Both the position numbers and the translations under genes were made by a program. Of a DNA stretch of 64,000 bases, positions 5,573 to 64,000 are shown one piece after another (the stretch's first letter is position 1; each line of letters opens with the position of its first letter). The DNA is from Escherichia coli (GTDB taxonomy: Bacteria; Pseudomonadota; Gammaproteobacteria; Enterobacterales; Enterobacteriaceae): assembly GCF_022846255.1 (NCBI RefSeq), contig NZ_AP025682.1; one strand, written 5' to 3'. Below the pieces are notes generated by a model. That model ran no database searches and had not been told where the DNA came from. It saw only the letters and a program-made list of their open reading frames with translations.

Positions 5573-5595
5573 ACTCCGCATTTGTAGGCAGGATA

Positions 5596-5670
5596 AGGCG
5601 TTTACGCCGCATCCGGCATTTGAGCAGGATGCCTGATGCGACGCTGATAGCGTCTTATCAGGCCTACACT
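5596..5670. repeat. REP/BIME elements in the cpxA–yiiM intergenic region
   Basis: gccgcatccggcatttgagcaggatgcctgatgcgacgctgatagcgtcttatcaggcctac. Confidence 0.55.
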
Positions 5671-11157: not shown

Positions 11158-14170
<3,013 letters not shown>

Positions 14171-14690
14171 ACACTGCCGGATGCGGCACAAGTGCCTTAT
14201 CCGGCCTACAGGTCAGCAACAGTTGTAGCCCTGATAAGACGCGACAGCGTCGCATCAGGCATTGATTGCCGGATGCGGCACGAGTGCCTTATCCGGCCTA
14301 CGGGTCGGCAATAGTTGTAGGCCTGATAAGACGCGACAGCGTCGCATCAGGCATTGATTGCCGGATGCGGCACGAGCGCCATATCCGGCCTACGGGTCGG
14401 CAATAGTTGTAGGCCTGATAAGACGCGACAGCGTCGCATCAGGCATTGATTGCCGGATGCGGCACGAGTGCCTTATCCGGCCTACGGGTCAGCAACAGTT
14501 GTAGGCCTGATAAGACGCGACAGCGTCGCATCAGGCATTGATTGCCGGATGCGGCACAAGTGCCTTATCCGGCCTACGGGTCGGCAATAGTTGTAGGCCT
14601 GATAAGACGCGACAGCGTCGCATCAGGCATTGATTGCCGGATGCGGCACGAGTGCCTTATCCGGCCTACGGGTCGTGCATCCGACAACAC
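14171..14690. repeat. BIME tandem array (REP pairs) filling the rhaA–rhaD intergenic region
   Basis: Unit gccggatgcggcac(a/g)agtgccttatccggcctacgggtc(a/g)gcaa(c/t)agttgtaggcctgataagacgcgacagcgtcgcatcaggcattgatt recurs with a ~93-bp period; starts at about 14177, 14270, 14363, 14450, 14543 and 14636. Confidence 0.8.
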
Positions 14691-14712
14691 CGAATTAACA
14701 GGAACACAGAAC

Positions 14713-15537
14713 ATGCAAAACATAACCCAGTCCTGGTTTGTCCAGGGAATGATCAAAGCCACCACCGATGCCTGGCTGAAAGGCTGGGACGAGCGCAACG
14801 GCGGCAACCTGACGCTGCGCCTGGATGACGCCGATATCGCACCATATCACGACATTTTTCACCAACAACCGCGCTATATCCCGCTCAGCCAGCCCATGCC
14901 TTTACTGGCAAATACACCGTTTATTGTCACCGGCTCGGGCAAATTCTTCCGTAACGTCCAGCTTGATCCTGCGGCTAACTTAGGCATCGTAAAAGTCGAC
15001 AGCGACGGCGCGGGCTACCACATTCTTTGGGGGTTAACCAACGAAGCCGTCCCCACTTCCGAACTTCCGGCTCACTTTCTCTCCCACTGCGAGCGCATTA
15101 AAGCCACCAACGGTAAAGATCGGGTGATCATGCACTGCCATGCCACCAACCTGATCGCCCTTACCTACGTACTGGAAAACGACACCGCGGTCTTCACTCG
15201 CCAGCTTTGGGAAGGCAGCACCGAGTGTCTGGTAGTGTTCCCGGATGGCGTTGGAATTCTGCCGTGGATGGTGCCCGGCACGGACGAAATCGGCCAGGCG
15301 ACCGCACAGGAAATGCAAAAACATTCGCTGGTGTTGTGGCCCTTCCACGGCGTCTTCGGCAGCGGTCCGACACTGGATGAAACATTCGGTTTAATCGACA
15401 CCGCAGAAAAATCAGCACAAATATTAGTGAAGGTTTATTCGATGGGCGGCATGAAACAGACCATCAGCCGTGAAGAGTTGATAGCACTCGGCCAGCGTTT
15501 CGGCGTTACACCACTCGCCAGTGCGCTGGCGCTGTAA
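14713..15537 (+). CDS. rhaD: Rhamnulose-1-phosphate aldolase
   Basis: [39 protein letters not shown]...; 274 aa from the internal Met; the listed ORF start lies inside the BIME array and is spurious. Confidence 0.9.
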
Positions 15538-15546
15538 GGAGCAAAC

Positions 15547-15861
15547 ATGATCCGCAAAGCCTTTGTCATGCAGGTAAACCCCGACGCCCACGAAGAGTAT
15601 CAGCGTCGGCATAATCCCATCTGGCCGGAACTGGAAGCCGTGCTGAAATCTCACGGTGCGCATAACTACGCCATCTATCTCGACAAAGCGCGTAATCTGC
15701 TATTTGCCACGATAGAGATTGAATCTGAAGAGCGGTGGAATGCGGTTGCCAGTACAGATGTTTGCCAACGTTGGTGGAAGTATATGACCGACGTTATGCC
15801 AGCTAACCCGGATAACAGCCCAGTCAGTAGCGAGCTGCAAGAAGTGTTTTACCTACCTTAA
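15547..15861 (+). CDS. rhaM: L-rhamnose mutarotase
   Basis: [46 protein letters not shown]...; 104 aa. Confidence 0.9.
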
Positions 15862-15901
15862 TGAGTTGCGGTGCCGGAAAATATCCAGCACCGCGCCTTC
15901 A

Positions 15902-17296
15902 TCAGAAGAAGTATTTAAAGCGAACGCGTGCGCCGTAACGGTCATCAGTATCATCACCGTGTTTTTTATCACCGTCGCTATCCAGAATGGAGTAATAAGT
16001 ACCAAGGTAAATATTAAAGTTCTCCATATCCATCACATTAGCGAACTGGTAAGACGCATGAATGGTGTGAATGGTGTACGTCCCTTCATCATCAATCCAG
16101 CAGTCGTTATCACAAACTACACCGCTGAATTCATCAATCTTATTGTGCGCGTAGATATAACCCAGCTCGAAACGTTTCCACAGCGCGTTAATCCCGGCAG
16201 TGAAATCTTTCTCATTATTAGCATCTAAATAGGCGGTATTAAGATTAACCACGACGCCATTTTCCGGATCCGTTTTCAGGCCATTCCAGGTCATGCTCAT
16301 ACCATAGCCGGTACGATCGGACTGATCGACAAAATTACCCTTGCTATCGGTATAACCATAAGCATTATTTACCATATTCGCTTCCATCGCTGCGGAAACG
16401 GTGAATTCTTCCGTCGGCGACCAGGCAATTACCGGACGCAGATAAGCAACATTTTTCTGCTGTTCCATATCGCGTCCATGATAATTACCGTCGTTATATA
16501 AAGATGTTCCATCTTCCAGTAACGTGTTTAATTCAAAATACCAGTTATCGAGTTGTTTGCTGACGAGGAAATTACCGCCAGCGTTAGAACGTCCGCGGCC
16601 CTCTTTCATCATATAGATATAACCGCTGCCATCGTCATAAAGATCGTTCGCAGTATTACCGGAATGTTCAACAAAGGTATCCTGACTCAGCGGGAACATA
16701 TCGTAGGCTTCAAAACGGCCTACTTTGACCTTCCAGTCGTTTTCTTTGCCAAAGAAGAAAACCGCATCATCGATATTTACTGAACCGTGCATATCCCCCA
16801 GCGGTTGTACGGAGAACCCAGCGAAATAGCCATTATCCAGTTTTCGCATACCATCAAAACCTAACAGAATACGACCATTGAGATTCCACTGTTCATTAGT
16901 GGGATCGCTATTCACATCAGCGTTGGTCATTGCCAGCAGGCCATGATTACTTTCCGCATCCATATTAAATTCTACGTCACCGTAGATTTTTAAATCGCCA
17001 TACCCTGAAAGCAGGAGATTAGGCGGGGTGGCGTTTTTCTTCTCTGACTCCGTCGTTGATTGACCGTTTACCGGCGTGTTGCCCTGTGCGATCTTAATTT
17101 CGCGGATCTCGGCGGCTTGTTGTGTCTGAAGCTGTTTAACCTGCCCCTCTGCTTTTGCTGCCCGCATTTCTGCCGCTTCCAGGCGTTCTTCCAGCAATGC
17201 CATGCGTTGTTCCAGCGTTAAATGCTGTGTTTTTGCCATACCGGTACTACATGCCAATAATAAACCGATGGCTAAAGATAATGTCGATTTTTTCAT
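15902..17296 (-). CDS. Outer-membrane carbohydrate porin with N-terminal coiled-coil (LamB/ScrY-like); not in K-12 at this locus
   Basis: Signal peptide MKKSTLSLAIGLLLACSTGMA, then a coiled-coil (LEQRMALLEERLEAAEMRAAKAEGQVKQLQTQQAAEIREIK), then a beta-rich body ending in aromatic ...RFKYFF typical of OM beta-barrels; lower-GC gene. Confidence 0.65.
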   Translation of the reverse strand: MKKSTLSLAIGLLLACSTGMAKTQHLTLEQRMALLEERLEAAEMRAAKAEGQVKQLQTQQAAEIREIKIAQGNTPVNGQSTTESEKKNATPPNLLLSGYGDLKIYGDVEFNMDAESNHGLLAMTNADVNSDPTNEQWNLNGRILLGFDGMRKLDNGYFAGFSVQPLGDMHGSVNIDDAVFFFGKENDWKVKVGRFEAYDMFPLSQDTFVEHSGNTANDLYDDGSGYIYMMKEGRGRSNAGGNFLVSKQLDNWYFELNTLLEDGTSLYNDGNYHGRDMEQQKNVAYLRPVIAWSPTEEFTVSAAMEANMVNNAYGYTDSKGNFVDQSDRTGYGMSMTWNGLKTDPENGVVVNLNTAYLDANNEKDFTAGINALWKRFELGYIYAHNKIDEFSGVVCDNDCWIDDEGTYTIHTIHASYQFANVMDMENFNIYLGTYYSILDSDGDKKHGDDTDDRYGARVRFKYFF

Positions 17297-17649
17297 TATT
17301 TACGTTCCCTGAAATAAAGGAGACCCTACGCTTTCCAAAAGGAATACGTATATAGAGAAATATAAGGTGTGCACTTTCGAATTTTTAATCCAACTTCAGC
17401 AGGCCGATGGATAGTATCCCGCTGCATAATATGAGTAAATCCGCTGATTTCCTGGAACGTGAGGAATATAACAATAGTGCCGTTTTTAACTAAATATCGT
17501 AAAAAATATTAGATATAATTCACGCTGACTCATAAGCCACAAATATAAATAACGCTTAAACAAATTATCTGAGACATTTTAACATTCACAAAATCATTAA
17601 ATAATGATACTTTATTCACAAAATTTATCCTTCACTCTGCTTTATATTG

Positions 17650-18204
17650 TTACGACTTCGTGACATATCCGTGCTCATCACAAACCCGCCCCGCGATTAC
17701 AATTAACTGAAATATTTCATCGACCATTTCGTTGTAATCGCATAACGCTCGTGGAAATGAGTCTTCGGCCATCCAGCTTGAGTTTGCGTCCTGAAGTTGC
17801 TCTTTATCCCAGTCAGAGTACGGGACTTTATCTCTGATGCGGCGAACGTATTTTTTAGCCTCGAGTTGATACTGGCCTGCCGAATTAATAAACGAGAAAC
17901 TCATGCCGCTTTTATCCGCTTCTTTGGCTTGCGCCACCAGCGTTTCCAGTTCAGACACTTTCTTCATTGCCGCTTCTGCATCTAACTTATCTTGCGATAT
18001 CAGGTTATTAATTTGTTTCGCTGAAATCATGACTGCCAGAGAGTAGTAGTGGAATGTTTTCCCTTTCGCAAACGCATCGTCTTTATAATTTTCCTGGGTG
18101 TAATATTTATCCATTTCGTTAATGGTATTACCCAACGCTACGGCAGCATCAATATAACTCACCGCCACGCCATCAATAGGTTGCAGCGCAGGCGTTAACG
18201 CCAC
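17650..18204 (-). CDS. Hypothetical protein (~184 aa, GTG start); sits where K-12 has yiiG but has no signal peptide
   Basis: ORF MALTPALQPIDGVAVSYIDAAVALGNTINEMDKYY...; in-frame stop 27 codons upstream leaves no room for a longer N-terminus; function unknown. Confidence 0.4.
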   Translation of the reverse strand: MALTPALQPIDGVAVSYIDAAVALGNTINEMDKYYTQENYKDDAFAKGKTFHYYSLAVMISAKQINNLISQDKLDAEAAMKKVSELETLVAQAKEADKSGMSFSFINSAGQYQLEAKKYVRRIRDKVPYSDWDKEQLQDANSSWMAEDSFPRALCDYNEMVDEIFQLIVIAGRVCDEHGYVTKS

Positions 18205-18291
18205 TACACGCGTTTTGTTTATGAGAAAATAACAAAATTCACGAAATGAATAAGTCCTGTAATTTAATATATATCGCAGGACTTATTTTAA

Positions 18292-19125
18292 TTAATTGCT
18301 CAAACGCTGCGGATGGGTATAAACCGTTGCCCGACCCGGTTTACAAAAGCCCACCAGCGTCAGATTACAGCGCTCAGCCACTTCTACAGCAAGTGTGGTC
18401 GCGGCAGACACCGCAAACAAAATCTCTACGCCGCACATCGCCGACTTTTGCACCATTTCATAACTGGCACGGCTGGAAACCAGCACCGCACCTTGCTGCC
18501 AGCTTTCCCCTTCTTGTGACCGGCGGCCTAACAGTTTGTCCAGCGCCACATGGCGACCCACGTCTTCATGCCCGCCGACCAGTTCGCCAGATGGCAACAT
18601 CCATGCAGCGGCGTGAGTACAACCAGTCAGTTGCCCCACTGGCTGGAAATCATTGAGATGACGTAATGCATCATCCAGTTTGTTGAGATCAAACATCTGG
18701 GTGAACGGCAGCGGCTGCACCGGTTTACCGATATCGTTAAGCTGTTCTACACCGCATACGCCACAGCCCGTACGTCCCGCCAGCGCCCGGCGGCGCTCCT
18801 TCAACCCCATAAAGCGGCGGCTGGAAAGCTCAATTTGTACTTCCAGGCCATTACAGGAAGGAACGACATCCATGCCGAAGATATCGCGCGGGCTTTCGAT
18901 AATTCCTTCGGAAAGCGAAAAACCGAGCGCAAAGTACTCAAGGTCTTTGGGCGACGCCATCATCACCACATGCGAAATACCGTTGTAGACCAGCGCAACG
19001 GGAACTTCTTCCGCCACCTCATCTAACCGTGGGTGTTGTAAATCATCACGCCGCCATAACTCAATTTGACGAACACCTGTGATATTTGTCACATTTTCGA
19101 TTTCTTTTTGCTGTGTTTTTTTCAC
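18292..19125 (-). CDS. fdhD: Formate dehydrogenase sulfurtransferase/accessory protein FdhD
   Basis: [59 protein letters not shown]...; 277 aa; divergent from fdoG. Confidence 0.9.
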
Positions 19126-19318
19126 TTTCTCTTAACCAGATAAGAACACACACACCAACATTATGGTATTCTGTTACAAACCCTTCCTGGATGGAGGGAA
19201 ATTGAGCCAATTCTGGACCTTTGCGGCCCCTTCCGCAAAGAAAAATAACTCCCACTCCCTGCACACTCAGCAAGCGAATGTAAATGGGACGTGACAATGT
19301 CGAAACAAGGAGCAATCC

Positions 19319-22300
19319 ATGCAGGTCAGCAGAAGGCAGTTCTTTAAGATCTGCGCTGGCGGTATGGCAGGCACCACGGCGGCGGCACTGGGTTTTGCAC
19401 CCAGCGTAGCACTCGCGGAAACCCGGCAGTATAAACTGCTGCGCACCCGCGAAACCCGTAATACCTGCACCTATTGTTCCGTAGGCTGTGGGCTGTTGAT
19501 GTACAGCCTCGGTGACGGAGCAAAAAACGCCAAAGCATCTATCTTCCATATCGAAGGTGACCCGGATCACCCGGTCAACCGCGGAGCACTTTGTCCGAAA
19601 GGCGCTGGCCTGGTGGATTTCATCCACTCCGAAAGCCGTCTGAAGTTTCCGGAATACCGTGCGCCAGGTTCTGATAAATGGCAGCAAATCAGTTGGGAAG
19701 AGGCGTTTGATCGCATCGCCAAACTGATGAAAGAAGACCGCGATGCAAACTACATTGCGCAAAACGCCGAAGGCGTGACTGTTAACCGCTGGCTCTCCAC
19801 CGGGATGCTGTGTGCTTCCGCGTCGAGTAACGAAACCGGCTATTTAACGCAAAAATTCTCCCGCGCGCTGGGTATGCTCGCGGTCGACAACCAGGCGCGT
19901 GTCTGACACGGACCAACGGTAGCAAGTCTTGCTCCAACATTTGGTCGCGGTGCGATGACCAACCACTGGGTCGACATCAAGAATGCCAACCTCGTCGTGG
20001 TGATGGGCGGTAACGCCGCTGAAGCTCACCCGGTCGGGTTCCGCTGGGCGATGGAAGCCAAAATTCACAACGGCGCGAAGCTGATTGTGATCGATCCTCG
20101 CTTTACGCGTACGGCGGCGGTGGCTGACTACTATGCCCCTATCCGTTCCGGTACTGACATTGCTTTCCTGTCAGGCGTATTGCTGTACCTGCTGAACAAT
20201 GAAAAATTCAACCGCGAATACACCGAAGCCTATACCAACGCCAGCCTGATCGTGCGTGAGGATTACGGCTTTGAAGATGGCCTGTTCACCGGCTACGACG
20301 CGGAAAAACGCAAGTACGATAAGTCCACCTGGACTTACGAACTGGACGAAAACGGCTTCGCCAAACGCGATACTACCCTGCAACATCCACGTTGCGTGTG
20401 GAACTTGCTGAAACAGCACGTTTCCCGCTACACGCCAGATGTGGTTGAAAACATCTGTGGTACGCCAAAAGACGCATTCCTGAAAGTCTGCGAATACATC
20501 GCCGAAACCAGTGCTCACGATAAAACAGCGTCGTTCCTCTACGCCCTCGGCTGGACGCAACACTCCATCGGTGCGCAGAACATCCGTACGATGGCGATGA
20601 TCCAGTTGCTGCTCGGCAATATGGGGATGGCTGGCGGCGGCGTTAACGCCCTGCGCGGTCACTCCAATATTCAGGGGCTGACCGACCTGGGGCTGCTGTC
20701 GCAGAGTCTGCCAGGTTACATGACGTTGCCAAGCGAGAAGCAGACCGATCTGCAAACTTACCTCGCTGCCAACACGCCAAAACCACTGCTGGAAGGCCAG
20801 GTCAACTACTGGGGCAACTACCCGAAATTCTTCGTCTCAATGATGAAGGCATTCTTTGGTGATAAAGCGACGGCGGAAAATAGCTGGGGCTTTGACTGGT
20901 TGCCGAAGTGGGATAAAGGCTACGACGTCCTGCAATACTTCGAGATGATGAAAGAGGGCAAGGTCAATGGCTATATCTGCCAGGGCTTTAACCCTGTTGC
21001 CTCATTCCCGAACAAAAACAAAGTGATCGGCTGTCTGTCGAAGCTGAAATTCCTCGTAACTATCGACCCGCTGAACACTGAAACCTCTAACTTCTGGCAG
21101 AACCACGGTGAGCTGAACGAAGTTGACTCGTCGAAGATCCAGACCGAAGTGTTCCGTCTGCCATCGACCTGCTTCGCGGAAGAGAACGGTTCAATCGTTA
21201 ACTCTGGTCGCTGGTTGCAATGGCACTGGAAAGGTGCGGACGCCCCGGGGATTGCGCTGACTGATGGCGAGATCCTCTCCGGTATCTTCCTGCGCTTGCG
21301 CAAGATGTATGCCGAACAGGGTGGTGCGAACCCGGACCAGGTGCTGAACATGACCTGGAACTACGCCATTCCGCATGAGCCATCTTCAGAAGAAGTGGCA
21401 ATGGAGAGCAACGGCAAAGCGCTGGCCGATATTACCGACCCGGCAACCGGTGCGGTTATCGTCAAGAAAGGCCAACAACTTAGCTCGTTCGCCCAACTGC
21501 GCGATGACGGTACAACCTCCTGTGGCTGCTGGATTTTCGCCGGTAGCTGGACGCCGGAAGGCAACCAGATGGCGCGTCGTGATAACGCCGATCCGTCTGG
21601 CCTCGGTAACACGCTGGGCTGGGCATGGGCATGGCCGCTTAACCGCCGCATTCTGTATAACCGCGCCTCCGCAGATCCGCAGGGTAACCCATGGGATCCG
21701 AAGCGTCAGTTGCTGAAATGGGACGGCACTAAGTGGACCGGCTGGGATATTCCGGATTACAGCGCAGCGCCTCCGGGCAGCGGCGTAGGGCCGTTTATCA
21801 TGCAGCAGGAAGGCATGGGACGTCTGTTTGCCCTCGATAAGATGGCGGAAGGTCCGTTCCCGGAACACTACGAGCCGTTTGAAACGCCGCTGGGAACTAA
21901 CCCGCTGCATCCAAACGTTATCTCGAACCCGGCGGCGCGTATCTTTAAAGACGACGCCGAAGCATTGGGTAAAGCCGATAAGTTCCCGTATGTCGGAACC
22001 ACCTATCGTCTGACCGAGCACTTCCACTACTGGACCAAACACGCGCTGTTGAATGCGATTTTGCAACCAGAGCAGTTTGTGGAAATCGGGGAGTCGCTGG
22101 CGAATAAACTTGGCATTGCCCAGGGCGATACTGTGAAAGTCTCCTCCAACCGTGGCTATATCAAAGCCAAAGCGGTAGTGACCAAACGTATTCGCACGCT
22201 GAAAGCAAACGGCAAAGATATCGATACCATCGGTATTCCGATTCACTGGGGCTATGAAGGTGTTGCGAAAAAAGGCTTTATTGCCAATACGTTGACGCCA

Positions 22301-45643: not shown

Positions 45644-45795
45644 AACTTTGCCTCAGGCATTAGAAATAGCGCGTTATTGTACACGGATTAATCGCACTAC
45701 AAAACAGGATCACAAACATCCTCCGCAAACAAGTATTGCAGAGTCCCTTTGTGATCGCTTTCACGGAGCATAAAAAGGGTTATCCAAAGGTCATT

Positions 45796-45932
45796 GCACC
45801 AATATGGTGCTTAATGTTCCCATTGAAGCACTATATTGGTGCAACATTCACATCATGGTGCAGCCCTTTTGCACGATGTTAAGCATGATAACGCCTTTTA
45901 GGGGCAATTTAAAAGTTGGCACAGATTTCGCT
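45796..45932 (+). promoter_or_regulatory. glnA control region: NtrC enhancer sites and sigma-54 promoter glnAp2
   Basis: NtrC-type palindromes gcaccaatatggtgc (45796-45812) and gcactatattggtgca (45828-45843); sigma-54 -24/-12 element ttGGCACagatttCGCTt at 45916-45932. Confidence 0.7.
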
Positions 45933-50306: not shown

Positions 50307-50458
<152 letters not shown>

Positions 50459-52595: not shown

Positions 52596-52666
52596 AATGG
52601 TTCGTCTTTTAGCCGTTTTATTCAGTATAGATTTGCGGCGGAATCTAACAGAAAGCAAGCAAAGAA

Positions 52667-52906
52667 AAAAGGCGACAGATTACTCTGTCGCCTTTTTTCC
52701 TGACTCATAACCCTTAACGGGTCTTACAATCCTTGCAGGCCGCCAACACACCCTGTTTTTCCATTAGCCGGAACAATCCGTGTTGATTCCATTTCCATTT
52801 AATTACGTCTCCGGACGTTTATCTTCCTGACAATCCTCTGTCTTCGCCTCCTGGCGCTCCTGACCCTCATCCTGAGTCATTGTTCCTGTTAGCGTCCTCG
52901 CTCTAT
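52667..52906 (-). ncRNA. csrC: CsrC, CsrA-sequestering sRNA
   Basis: Intergenic yihI–engB, the known csrC locus; minus strand carries many GGA motifs (plus-strand TCC: atccttgc, tctccgga, cttcctga, atcctctg, ctcctggc, ctcctgac, atcctgag, gttcctgt); ends at terminator ggcgacagagtaatctgtcgcc + T-run; 5' end approximate. Confidence 0.6.
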
Positions 52907-53934: not shown

Positions 53935-54043
53935 TAAAAAACGCCCCAGTCATTACTGACTGGGGCGGCTAAAATATTCAGCCAAATCCGATTACGTGAA
54001 GTAAAAGGTCTGAAAGATAGAACATCTTACCTCTGTACCCTAC
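53935..54043 (-). ncRNA. spf: Spot 42 sRNA
   Basis: Minus-strand sequence GTAGGGTACAGAGGTAAGATGTTCTATCTTTCAGACCTTTTACTTCACGTAATCGGATTTGGCTGAATATTTTAGCCGCCCCAGTCAGTAATGACTGGGGCGTTTTTTA matches Spot 42 as recalled, including its terminator; location between polA and engB. Confidence 0.85.
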
Positions 54044-54190
54044 GCGACTAACTTTACTCTTTTTTGTTCAGTTCAGAAAGCATTTTTTGTAATTTTTTTT
54101 CAGTTGTTGCATAGGAATTTCTAATAGCCATCACAAAACGTGACAGCTTATGTTGCTTACTTACGAAAAAAGGGCATGTTCAGGCGAATC

Positions 54191-63139: not shown

Positions 63140-63259
63140 ATGCCTGGCAGTTCCCTACTCTCGCATGGGGAGGCCCCACACTACCATCGGCGCTACGGCG
63201 TTTCACTTCTGAGTTCGGCATGGGGTCAGGTGGGACCACCGCGCTACGGCCGCCAGGCA
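63140..63259 (-). rRNA. rrfA: 5S ribosomal RNA (probably rrfA given the adjacent mobB)
   Basis: Reverse complement reads TGCCTGGCGGCCGTAGCGCGGTGGTCCCACCTGACCCCATGCCGAACTCAGAAGTGAAACGCCGTAGCGCCGATGGTAGTGTGGGGCCTCCCCATGCGAGAGTAGGGAACTGCCAGGCAT; 120 nt. Confidence 0.9.
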
Positions 63260-63357
63260 AATTCTGTTTTATCAACACGTCTCGTTATGACCTGTCGATT
63301 TAATCTGTATCAGGCTGAAAATCTTCTCTCTATCCGCCAAAACATCTTCGGCGTTGT

Positions 63358-64000
<643 letters not shown>

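Follow-up and report, generated by a model that had tools for sequence, protein, structure and literature searches.

In the 64,000-nucleotide stretch of Escherichia coli DNA analysed here, to which we refer as the window, the rhaA and rhaD genes of the rhaBAD operon flank an intercistronic spacer of 542 bp. The upstream gene, rhaA (12911..14170, + strand), encodes the 419-aa L-rhamnose isomerase and is identified both by an exact protein match with the Pfam RhaA domain and by the RefSeq rhaA annotation in all E. coli matches. On reading the sequence, its TAA stop codon at 14168-14170 is followed by ACAC and then directly by a repeat. The spacer (14171..14712, + strand) can be written as ACAC + 5 x 92 bp + 78 bp, and it closes with a unique part of 37 bases (14676..14712, + strand) that carries the rhaD Shine-Dalgarno sequence AGGA at 14700-14703, is kept in all E. 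coli alleles and can be aligned to other genera. The downstream gene, rhaD (14713..15537, + strand), encodes the 274-aa rhamnulose-1-phosphate aldolase and starts with the ATG at 14713, in agreement with its length of 825 bp in every E. coli RefSeq record examined. A mechanically called open reading frame (14542-15537, 331 aa, TTG start) crosses the last 1.4 repeat units into rhaD, and its 57-codon 5' extension (14542..14712, + strand) is spurious, as the original prediction had it. The remaining junctions of the operon are compact, with rhaB and rhaA overlapping and a gap of 9 nt between rhaD and rhaM, and the rhaA-rhaD junction is the sole non-compact one. The rhaA and rhaD flanks show a best identity of 99.6% to complete E. 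coli genomes, and the 4-kb segment downstream shows 98.6%.

According to Tandem Repeats Finder, 14175-14675 is occupied by one tandem array, which has 5.4 copies at a period of 92, with 96% matches, no indels and a score of 932. No other tandem repeat in the window reaches a score of 80, and a repeat search finds the 92-bp spacing to be register-perfect across it. The expectation of a tandem BIME array of REP pairs inside rhaBAD is thus borne out, including the presence of the REP sequences quoted in its support. The periodicity also stands, but the period is 92 rather than about 93 bp, and the array accounts for 501 of the 542 bp and not for an entire spacer of 540 bp. Each unit opens with a 35-nt Y REP (TGCCGGATGCGGCACGAGTGCCTTATCCGGCCTAC), which a 16-nt tail-to-tail linker connects to an inverted Z2 REP with a length of about 37 nt (GTAGGCCTGATAAGACGCGACAGCGTCGCATCAGGCA); a 5-nt head-to-head linker, TTGAT, completes the unit. 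The REP tails (TTATCMGGCCTAC) switch between the + and - strands 11 times within the array, which yields six Y and five Z2 copies, 11 REPs in all; in the whole window there are 20 such tails, 11 of them in the array (chance expectation 0.09). It is on Tandem Repeats Finder, the repeat search and these alternating tails that we delimit the feature, to which no strand is assigned, as a tandem BIME-2 array of 5.4 units of 92 bp (14175..14675).

The Y REPs are all on the + strand. The first (14175..14209) has a stem that starts at 14176, that is, 5 nt past the rhaA stop, which ends at 14170; the second (14267..14301) forms an RNA hairpin of -20 kcal/mol; the third (14359..14393) has degenerated (GAGCGCCATATCC), its upper stem containing an A.C mismatch; the fourth and fifth lie at 14451..14485 and 14543..14577; and the sixth, terminal copy (14635..14669) corresponds to the single Y REP that is kept in every E. 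coli allele. The Z2 REPs, on the - strand, occupy 14225..14261 (with a GTAGCCC variant in the tail), 14317..14353 (RNA hairpin of -21.9 kcal/mol), 14409..14445, 14501..14537 and 14593..14629. Two REPs are therefore slightly degenerate, namely the third Y and, in its tail, the first Z2. The five full units differ from one another by 1-7 substitutions in pairwise comparison, in line with the few differences initially noted, and no two of them are identical. The RNA of the whole spacer folds with -289 kcal/mol (z = -10.8 compared with dinucleotide shuffles). Strong hairpins are predicted for the DNA as well as for the RNA.

So to which class of BIMEs does this array belong? By definition, BIME-2 elements combine Y and Z2 REPs through a short S linker, are flanked by s, l or r sequences and occur in multiple tandem copies the number of which varies between strains, whereas BIME-1 is a single Y+Z1 pair with a long L linker that often contains an IHF site (Ton-Hoang et al., 2012). 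The doublets of the rha array align to both hairpins of the Rfam model RF02564 with no indels in the stems, and because this model was built from the Y-l-Z2 cluster REP325, the two palindromes are identified independently as Y and Z2. The REPs alternate in orientation, head-to-head and then tail-to-tail; the linkers are short, 16 and 5 nt, and can be called S and s on their length only; the 5.4 tandem copies of the window belong to a series of 0-6 units in E. coli; and the array is wholly extragenic, lying between the rhaA stop at 14170 and the rhaD ATG at 14713. Judged by its sequence, then, the rha array is a BIME-2, with all the sequence features of this class and no feature that distinguishes BIME-1. 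The BIME-1 (or RIB/RIP) elements are likewise built of a Y REP and a second, inverted REP, but they are single-copy Y+Z1 elements with a long, IHF-carrying L linker, and the rha array has none of these attributes.

This assignment bears on the suggestion that the array binds IHF, which in its strongest form would make it a BIME of the BIME-1 or RIB/RIP type that bends DNA where a transcription unit ends. All that speaks for such a role is that BIMEs in general are said to be capable of binding IHF. The IHF sites, though, belong to the L linker of single-copy Y+Z1 elements, whereas here the REPs are Y+Z2 and the linkers measure 16 and 5 nt; furthermore, a pattern search for the IHF core WATCAANNNNTTR gave no match anywhere in the window, and the nearest IHF-like site on direct reading, AATCAATGCCTGA on the - strand, has one mismatch in the TTR part. 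The claim of IHF binding is accordingly not supported and does not suit this class of BIME, and an IHF-dependent architecture of this kind is hardly credible for the array.

The element as such is already known: the rha array is the ortholog of the cluster annotated as REP299a-i in E. coli K-12. In K-12 MG1655, the rhaA-rhaD spacer is 450 bp long and holds four full units and a terminal Y, i.e. nine REPs. The two clusters have in common the locus, the flanks, the 92-bp Y-S-Z2-s unit and identical end junctions, with ACAC following the stop and GGGTCGTGCATCCGACAACACCGAATT.ACAGGAACACAGAAC preceding rhaD. They differ in size, given that the window has five units plus one terminal Y (11 REPs, 542 bp), and in the order of unit variants, and the window has the two degenerate REPs, Y3 and the first Z2. 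A 2024 preprint that cites REP299a-i from EcoCyc treats it as the sole within-operon (rhaBAD) cluster among the eight large REP clusters studied and places it among those that gain exonuclease protection under SDS or copper stress.

A link to gyrase, which was also part of the original prediction, is backed by data on the K-12 ortholog. In a Topo-Seq study of strain W3110, "rhaA>-rhaD>" is listed as a 401-bp BIME-2 with four gyrase cleavage sites under ciprofloxacin (Cfx), two under rifampicin and Cfx, one under microcin B17 and none under oxolinic acid (Sutormin et al., 2019). Among the BIME-2 elements in the part of that table from 2.89 Mb onwards, only one is longer (Sutormin et al., 2019). 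The same study reports that gyrase cleaves Y REPs more often than Z2 REPs and describes BIME-2 elements as transcription-independent gyrase sites (Sutormin et al., 2019). Gyrase-cleaved BIME-2 clusters such as sucB-sucC and tldD-yhdP are Y/Z2 arrays that are cut in vivo (Espeli and Boccard, 1997; Sutormin et al., 2019), and the K-12 rhaA-rhaD array, with its four Cfx sites, stands in one table with them. In that table, tldD-yhdP has 35 mapped sites within 307 bp, whereas the K-12 rha array has far fewer within 401 bp. By analogy with these published data, binding and cleavage of the window array by gyrase is probable.

A different function is suggested by matches to RF02564, the naRNA4 model, which was defined as the Y-l-Z2 unit of the BIME-2 cluster REP325, repeated six-fold between yjdM and yjdN. 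Five head-to-head Y-s-Z2 doublets (14228-14298, 14320-14390, 14412-14482, 14504-14574 and 14596-14666), all on the - strand and hence antisense to rhaBAD, match this model with 67-76.6 bits, above the gathering score of 59.5, whereas the + strand matches, at 46-54 bits, stay below it. The array could then be a source of naRNA4-like RNAs of about 71 nt that bind HU and help to condense the nucleoid, as has been described for REP325; naRNA4 itself is an HU-binding RNA of about 77 nt. Indeed, REP325 of K-12 is the same kind of array, a tandem BIME-2 with about six Y-linker-Z2 repeats; its antisense RNA also worked with HU in vitro; and REP299 and REP325 are both among the eight REP clusters for which the 2024 preprint describes stress-dependent exonuclease protection. 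Nevertheless, REP325 has a longer head-to-head linker, 'l', and a 'U' spacer, lies between genes and has documented RNAs, in contrast to the rha array, which is located inside a catabolic operon with its matching strand antisense. The alignment has a 6-nt deletion in the linker, so that the rha array lacks the 'l' linker of naRNA4, there is no promoter-like site on either strand, the strand that is transcribed scores below the threshold, and rhaBAD is transcribed only with rhamnose. Moreover, RF02564 also matches two unrelated, single BIME-2 doublets in the window, at 5587-5664 and 50328-50399, and given these it is in effect a detector of BIME-2 doublets. A naRNA4-like role is, in our estimate, very improbable. 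For annotators, the naRNA4 calls and the 331-aa rhaD reading frame should both be taken as products of the repeat.

How variable is the array within the species? With a query composed of 400 bp of rhaA and 400 bp of rhaD, the repeat being left out, the locus was found in 5,402 of 5,426 complete E. coli genomes, and spacer lengths were taken from a sample, as opposed to a full census, of 59 records drawn at even steps down the ranking of the 5,402 matching genomes. The lengths make up a ladder with steps of 92 bp that extends from 82 to 634 bp: 82 bp in 14 records, 92 bp in two, 174 or 176 bp in eight, 184 bp in two, 241 bp in nine, 262 or 266 bp in eight, 276 bp in three, 358 bp in two, 368 bp in two, 450 bp in eight and 634 bp in one. 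In the example read from each length class, ACAC is followed by exactly n units of 92 bp (n = 0-6) and then by the terminal Y REP together with the unique tail (78 or 88 bp). The commonest class is that with zero extra units (25 of the 59 sampled genomes, approximately 42%), and every E. coli allele examined retains at least one Y REP 4 nt past the rhaA stop. The window length of 542 bp (n = 5) is absent from the 59 sampled genomes and shared by at least seven complete genomes; the five-unit allele is rare. K-12 derivatives have 450 bp, O157:H7 and BL21 174 bp each, and ST131 266 bp; length is steady within clonal groups, so this is a lineage-level polymorphism and not rapid phase variation. 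The anticipated difference in copy number among E. coli genomes is therefore real but ordinary, because copy-number variation has already been described for the BIME-2 class: the relevant passage of Chiapello et al. (2005) credits Bachellier et al. (1997) with BIME-2 loci of "two to twelve" units and with PCR length polymorphism in 51 isolates.

Given a repeat of this kind, the copy number of the window might in principle be wrong through collapse or expansion of repeats during assembly. The concern has some basis in the draft assembly GCA_005387665.1, the flanks of which are identical to those of the window (0 mismatches in 2,760 + 1,157 nt) and the array of which is interrupted by 34 N, as can be expected if short reads cannot span it; short-read assemblies do break or gap at this array. 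Yet the sequenced array ends of the same draft agree with the window, the five units of the window are all distinct, and the ladder in complete genomes is clean, with at least seven of them at 542 bp, all of which makes such an artefact exceedingly unlikely.

The high similarity of the units had been taken as a sign of recent expansion, and this now appears doubtful. A contig scan with one genome per species returned, among its best 80 loci, no representative of E. coli, E. fergusonii or E. albertii, and the history within the genus rests on one additional species. In this species, Escherichia sp. MOD1-EC7003, the same junction holds at least ten full units and a terminal Y, with the identical unique tail before rhaD, and the units all share the Z2 loop GGCT and the linker GGTCACCAAC, unlike the E. 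coli versions. The strains of E. coli, for their part, are mosaics with differing orders of a few shared unit variants, and the window lacks identical units. Because the MOD1-EC7003 array has its own homogenised unit variants at the same junction, concerted evolution suggests itself, and the similarity of the units is better read as the outcome of an old array evolving in concert than as that of a single recent expansion. At the very start of the MOD1-EC7003 contig, 62 nt before what is left of the array, lies the end of a multicopy IS3-family element, which abuts the loop of a Z2 REP. IS1397, a member of the IS3 family, targets REP loops. Unequal recombination between the 92-bp repeats, or slippage, could account for the gain and loss of units and would also homogenise the array, and the REP-associated transposase TnpA-REP (RAYT) may assist in this process. 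TnpA-REP cleaves and recombines BIMEs in vitro, and BIME copy number is strain-variable (Ton-Hoang et al., 2012). Across 27 distinct units, a change of both partners is limited to one stem pair, from A-U to G-C in the upper part of the Y stem. This does not exceed shuffles, the units being highly similar, and covariation is too weak to demonstrate that the hairpins are selected; variable columns make up 9 of the 48 stem positions and 16 of the 44 non-stem positions (Fisher p = 0.065), a mild depletion in stems that is suggestive only.

The reading that in our view best explains the locus, with a probability of about 0.88, is that of a BIME-2 cluster of six Y and five Z2 REPs, orthologous to REP299a-i, that occupies the only non-compact junction of rhaBAD and would act through the following mechanism. 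Within 13800-15000, no promoter-like site was found on either strand and no terminator-like site (a GC-rich hairpin followed by a U run) on either strand, that is, nothing that would qualify as an intrinsic terminator, and because the spacer has neither, we infer co-transcription of the array with rhaBAD. The transcript would then contain 11 stable hairpins, each with about -20 kcal/mol, which, by analogy with other REPs, would be expected to block 3'-to-5' exonucleases and so protect the rhaBA segment, could lower the efficiency of termination of RhaA and could lower read-through into rhaD, while the array DNA would act as a transcription-independent cluster of gyrase sites. A C-rich, G-poor Rho-loading stretch is absent from the sense RNA (the maximal excess of C over G in any 78-nt window is 3.8%), and the composition thus gives no hint of Rho loading in the array.

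Among known systems, the intercistronic REPs of malE-malF and hisJ-hisQ and the nrdAB REP (Liang et al., 2015), which stabilise mRNA or modulate translation, resemble the rha array in that the hairpins directly follow the stop of the upstream cistron in a polycistronic mRNA; they differ from it in having one to three REPs and experimental support, as against 11 REPs and evidence from sequence only. According to a paper that cites the nrdAB work, REPs no more than 15 nt away from a stop codon are reported to stall ribosomes (Liang et al., 2015), and with its first stem 5 nt past the stop, rhaA conforms to the rule as that citing paper gives it; a REP down-regulator of this type would lower the upstream protein in a tmRNA-dependent way. 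Of the whole array, the first REP appears the likeliest to be of consequence for the operon. In contrast, the number of extra units can be held close to neutral because 25 of the 59 sampled genomes have no extra unit, and for the same reason, that is, the absence of extra units from about 42% of the sample, the array itself seems dispensable.

Could the number of units nevertheless set the RhaD:RhaA ratio, through attenuation into rhaD or 3' protection of rhaBA, such that lineages differ in the stoichiometry of the rhamnose pathway? Since rhaD lacks a promoter-like site of its own in the spacer, whatever reaches rhaD has to traverse the array; secondary structure in the RNA is very strong; the literature credits REPs and BIMEs with mRNA stabilisation, attenuation and translational effects; and copy number is steady within clonal lineages and different between them, as in K-12, O157:H7 and ST131 (450, 174 and 266 bp). 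Espeli and co-workers are said to have described BIME-associated attenuation in 2001. Against this possibility, 0 to 6 or more units coexist in E. coli with the zero-unit class the commonest, the roughly 42% of sampled genomes with no extra unit argue against a strong requirement for the array, and there is neither a Rho-loading stretch nor an intrinsic terminator. We found no literature that links the expression of rhaA or rhaD to REPs. All this makes tuning by unit number, which draws on analogy with other elements, a possible but rather unlikely scenario. Previous work has already described the element, its class and its cleavage by gyrase, as well as the fact that such loci are polymorphic in length. 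The natural allele series, with 0, 1, 2, 3, 4, 5, 6 and at least ten units in an otherwise identical context, would be a convenient test bed for an old question, namely the effect of BIME copy number on polycistronic mRNA and local supercoiling.

What, then, occupies this junction outside Escherichia? In 75 further species of Enterobacteriaceae with a rhaA-rhaD spacer of at least 30 nt, the spacer measures 35-466 bp, and in 58 of the 75 it folds far more stably than dinucleotide shuffles (z < -2), a count in which species are not independent, as related genera share occupants. These occupants belong to several unrelated palindromic families. REP pairs of various types are found in Citrobacter, Salmonella, Kluyvera and Leclercia, GC-rich CCCTCTCCC...GGGAGAGGGTTAGGGTGAGGG composites in Enterobacter, Lelliottia and Pseudocitrobacter, while Superficieibacter electus has an independent tandem REP array, 466 bp in length. 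The near-universal occupation of the junction by differing palindromic repeats across the family is the only mildly new point of this analysis, and it is compatible with two interpretations: insertions may simply be tolerated at this junction, or a structured element may be of use there.

On the former interpretation, the array would be a purely selfish or neutral repeat with no operon-specific role, in a junction that tolerates insertions, and its size would change by drift. The wide range of copy numbers with no obvious constraint fits this notion, as does the fact that, in another Escherichia species, an IS3-family element has inserted into an array REP, and REPs and BIMEs are in general regarded as RAYT-dependent intragenomic populations. 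On the other hand, a Y REP 4 nt past the rhaA stop is kept in every E. coli allele examined, strongly folding repeats of several unrelated families occupy the junction in 58 of 75 species, and the K-12 copy is a real cluster of gyrase cleavage. We regard neutrality as a serious contender that nonetheless falls short of even odds. The latter interpretation can be extended to a scenario in which the junction would be selected across Enterobacteriaceae for a strongly folding palindrome, serving as an RNA barrier directly past the rhaA stop, as a gyrase site within an operon that is strongly inducible or as both, with different families (Y/Z2 BIME-2, other REP pairs, GC-rich CCCTCTCCC/GGGAGAGGG composites, tandem REPs) being recruited or swapped and with the number of units in Escherichia tuning rhaD by lineage; in this full form, the scenario is speculative and we consider it unlikely. 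A glimpse of the different occupants side by side is afforded by the 241-bp allele of E. coli, which consists of the first Y REP and one GC-rich composite and aligns collinearly with the spacers of Enterobacter and Lelliottia.

Across the Enterobacteriaceae, the rhaA-rhaD spacer (the sequence upstream of position 2501 in the fetched loci L015-L093) folds with z < -2 in 58 of 75 species, and these strongly folding spacers carry REP-like or GC-rich palindromic repeats that belong to several unrelated families; short, unstructured spacers of 15-47 nt are found in only a few species. Superficieibacter electus BP-1 possesses an independent array at this junction, namely a 466-bp tandem array (L044 2035-2500) that consists of approximately nine direct REP units of ~48 nt (GCAGGCCCGGTAAGCGCAGCGCCACCGGGCAGG...) and folds at -237 kcal/mol (z = -8.2).

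In 9 of the 59 sampled E. coli genomes, for example, in strain SL112 (L006 401-641), the spacer is a 241-bp allele in which the first Y REP precedes a GC-rich composite palindrome (CCCTCACCCCGGCCCTCTCCC...GGGAGAGGGTTAGGGTGAGGGG). In the alignment, this allele is collinear with the element that Enterobacter, Lelliottia and Pseudocitrobacter carry between rhaA and rhaD. It may represent the ancestral occupant of the rhaA-rhaD junction.

Escherichia sp. MOD1-EC7003 (NZ_PTRE01000091.1; L014 1-1078) carries at least 10 full units and the terminal Y REP, that is, at least 21 REPs, which exceeds the range quoted for BIME-2 of K-12, 'two to twelve'. The first 62 nt of this contig match one terminus of a multicopy IS3-family element that adjoins the loop of a Z2 REP, as if an IS had inserted into the array. 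Copy number at the rhaA-rhaD locus is not obtainable from short-read assemblies: in the draft GCA_005387665.1 (BFRP01000062.1; L094 2761-3103), the flanks of which are identical to those in the window, a run of 34 N interrupts the array, and the Logan contig L095 terminates 34 nt into it. In E. coli BW25113 (NZ_CP193896.1; match H120), the flank query matched only over the last 118 nt of its rhaD part, as expected from the rhaBAD deletion engineered into that strain; some of the 'missing' loci in the copy-number census are laboratory deletions.

Outside the array, two single Y-linker-Z2 doublets, at window 5587-5664 (plus strand) and 50328-50399 (minus strand), score above the Rfam gathering threshold for naRNA4. 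This model behaves as a general detector of BIME-2 doublets, and therefore such matches are not to be taken as naRNA genes.

The K-12 frvABXR operon is absent 3' of rhaM (window 15540-19540); this segment contains a carbohydrate porin gene (464-aa ORF; 15902-17296, minus strand) and a DUF3829 gene, both before fdhD/fdoG. Complete E. coli genomes match it at no more than 98.6% identity, and therefore the lineage of the window has no close representative among them. Gathering-level Rfam matches further include the formate dehydrogenase SECIS element (19901-19959, plus strand) and, on the minus strand, the ES222 sRNA (45725-45832), CsrC (52653-52906), Spot 42 (53935-54053), and part of an rrn operon, namely the 5S rRNA and the 23S rRNA 3' end (63142-64000).
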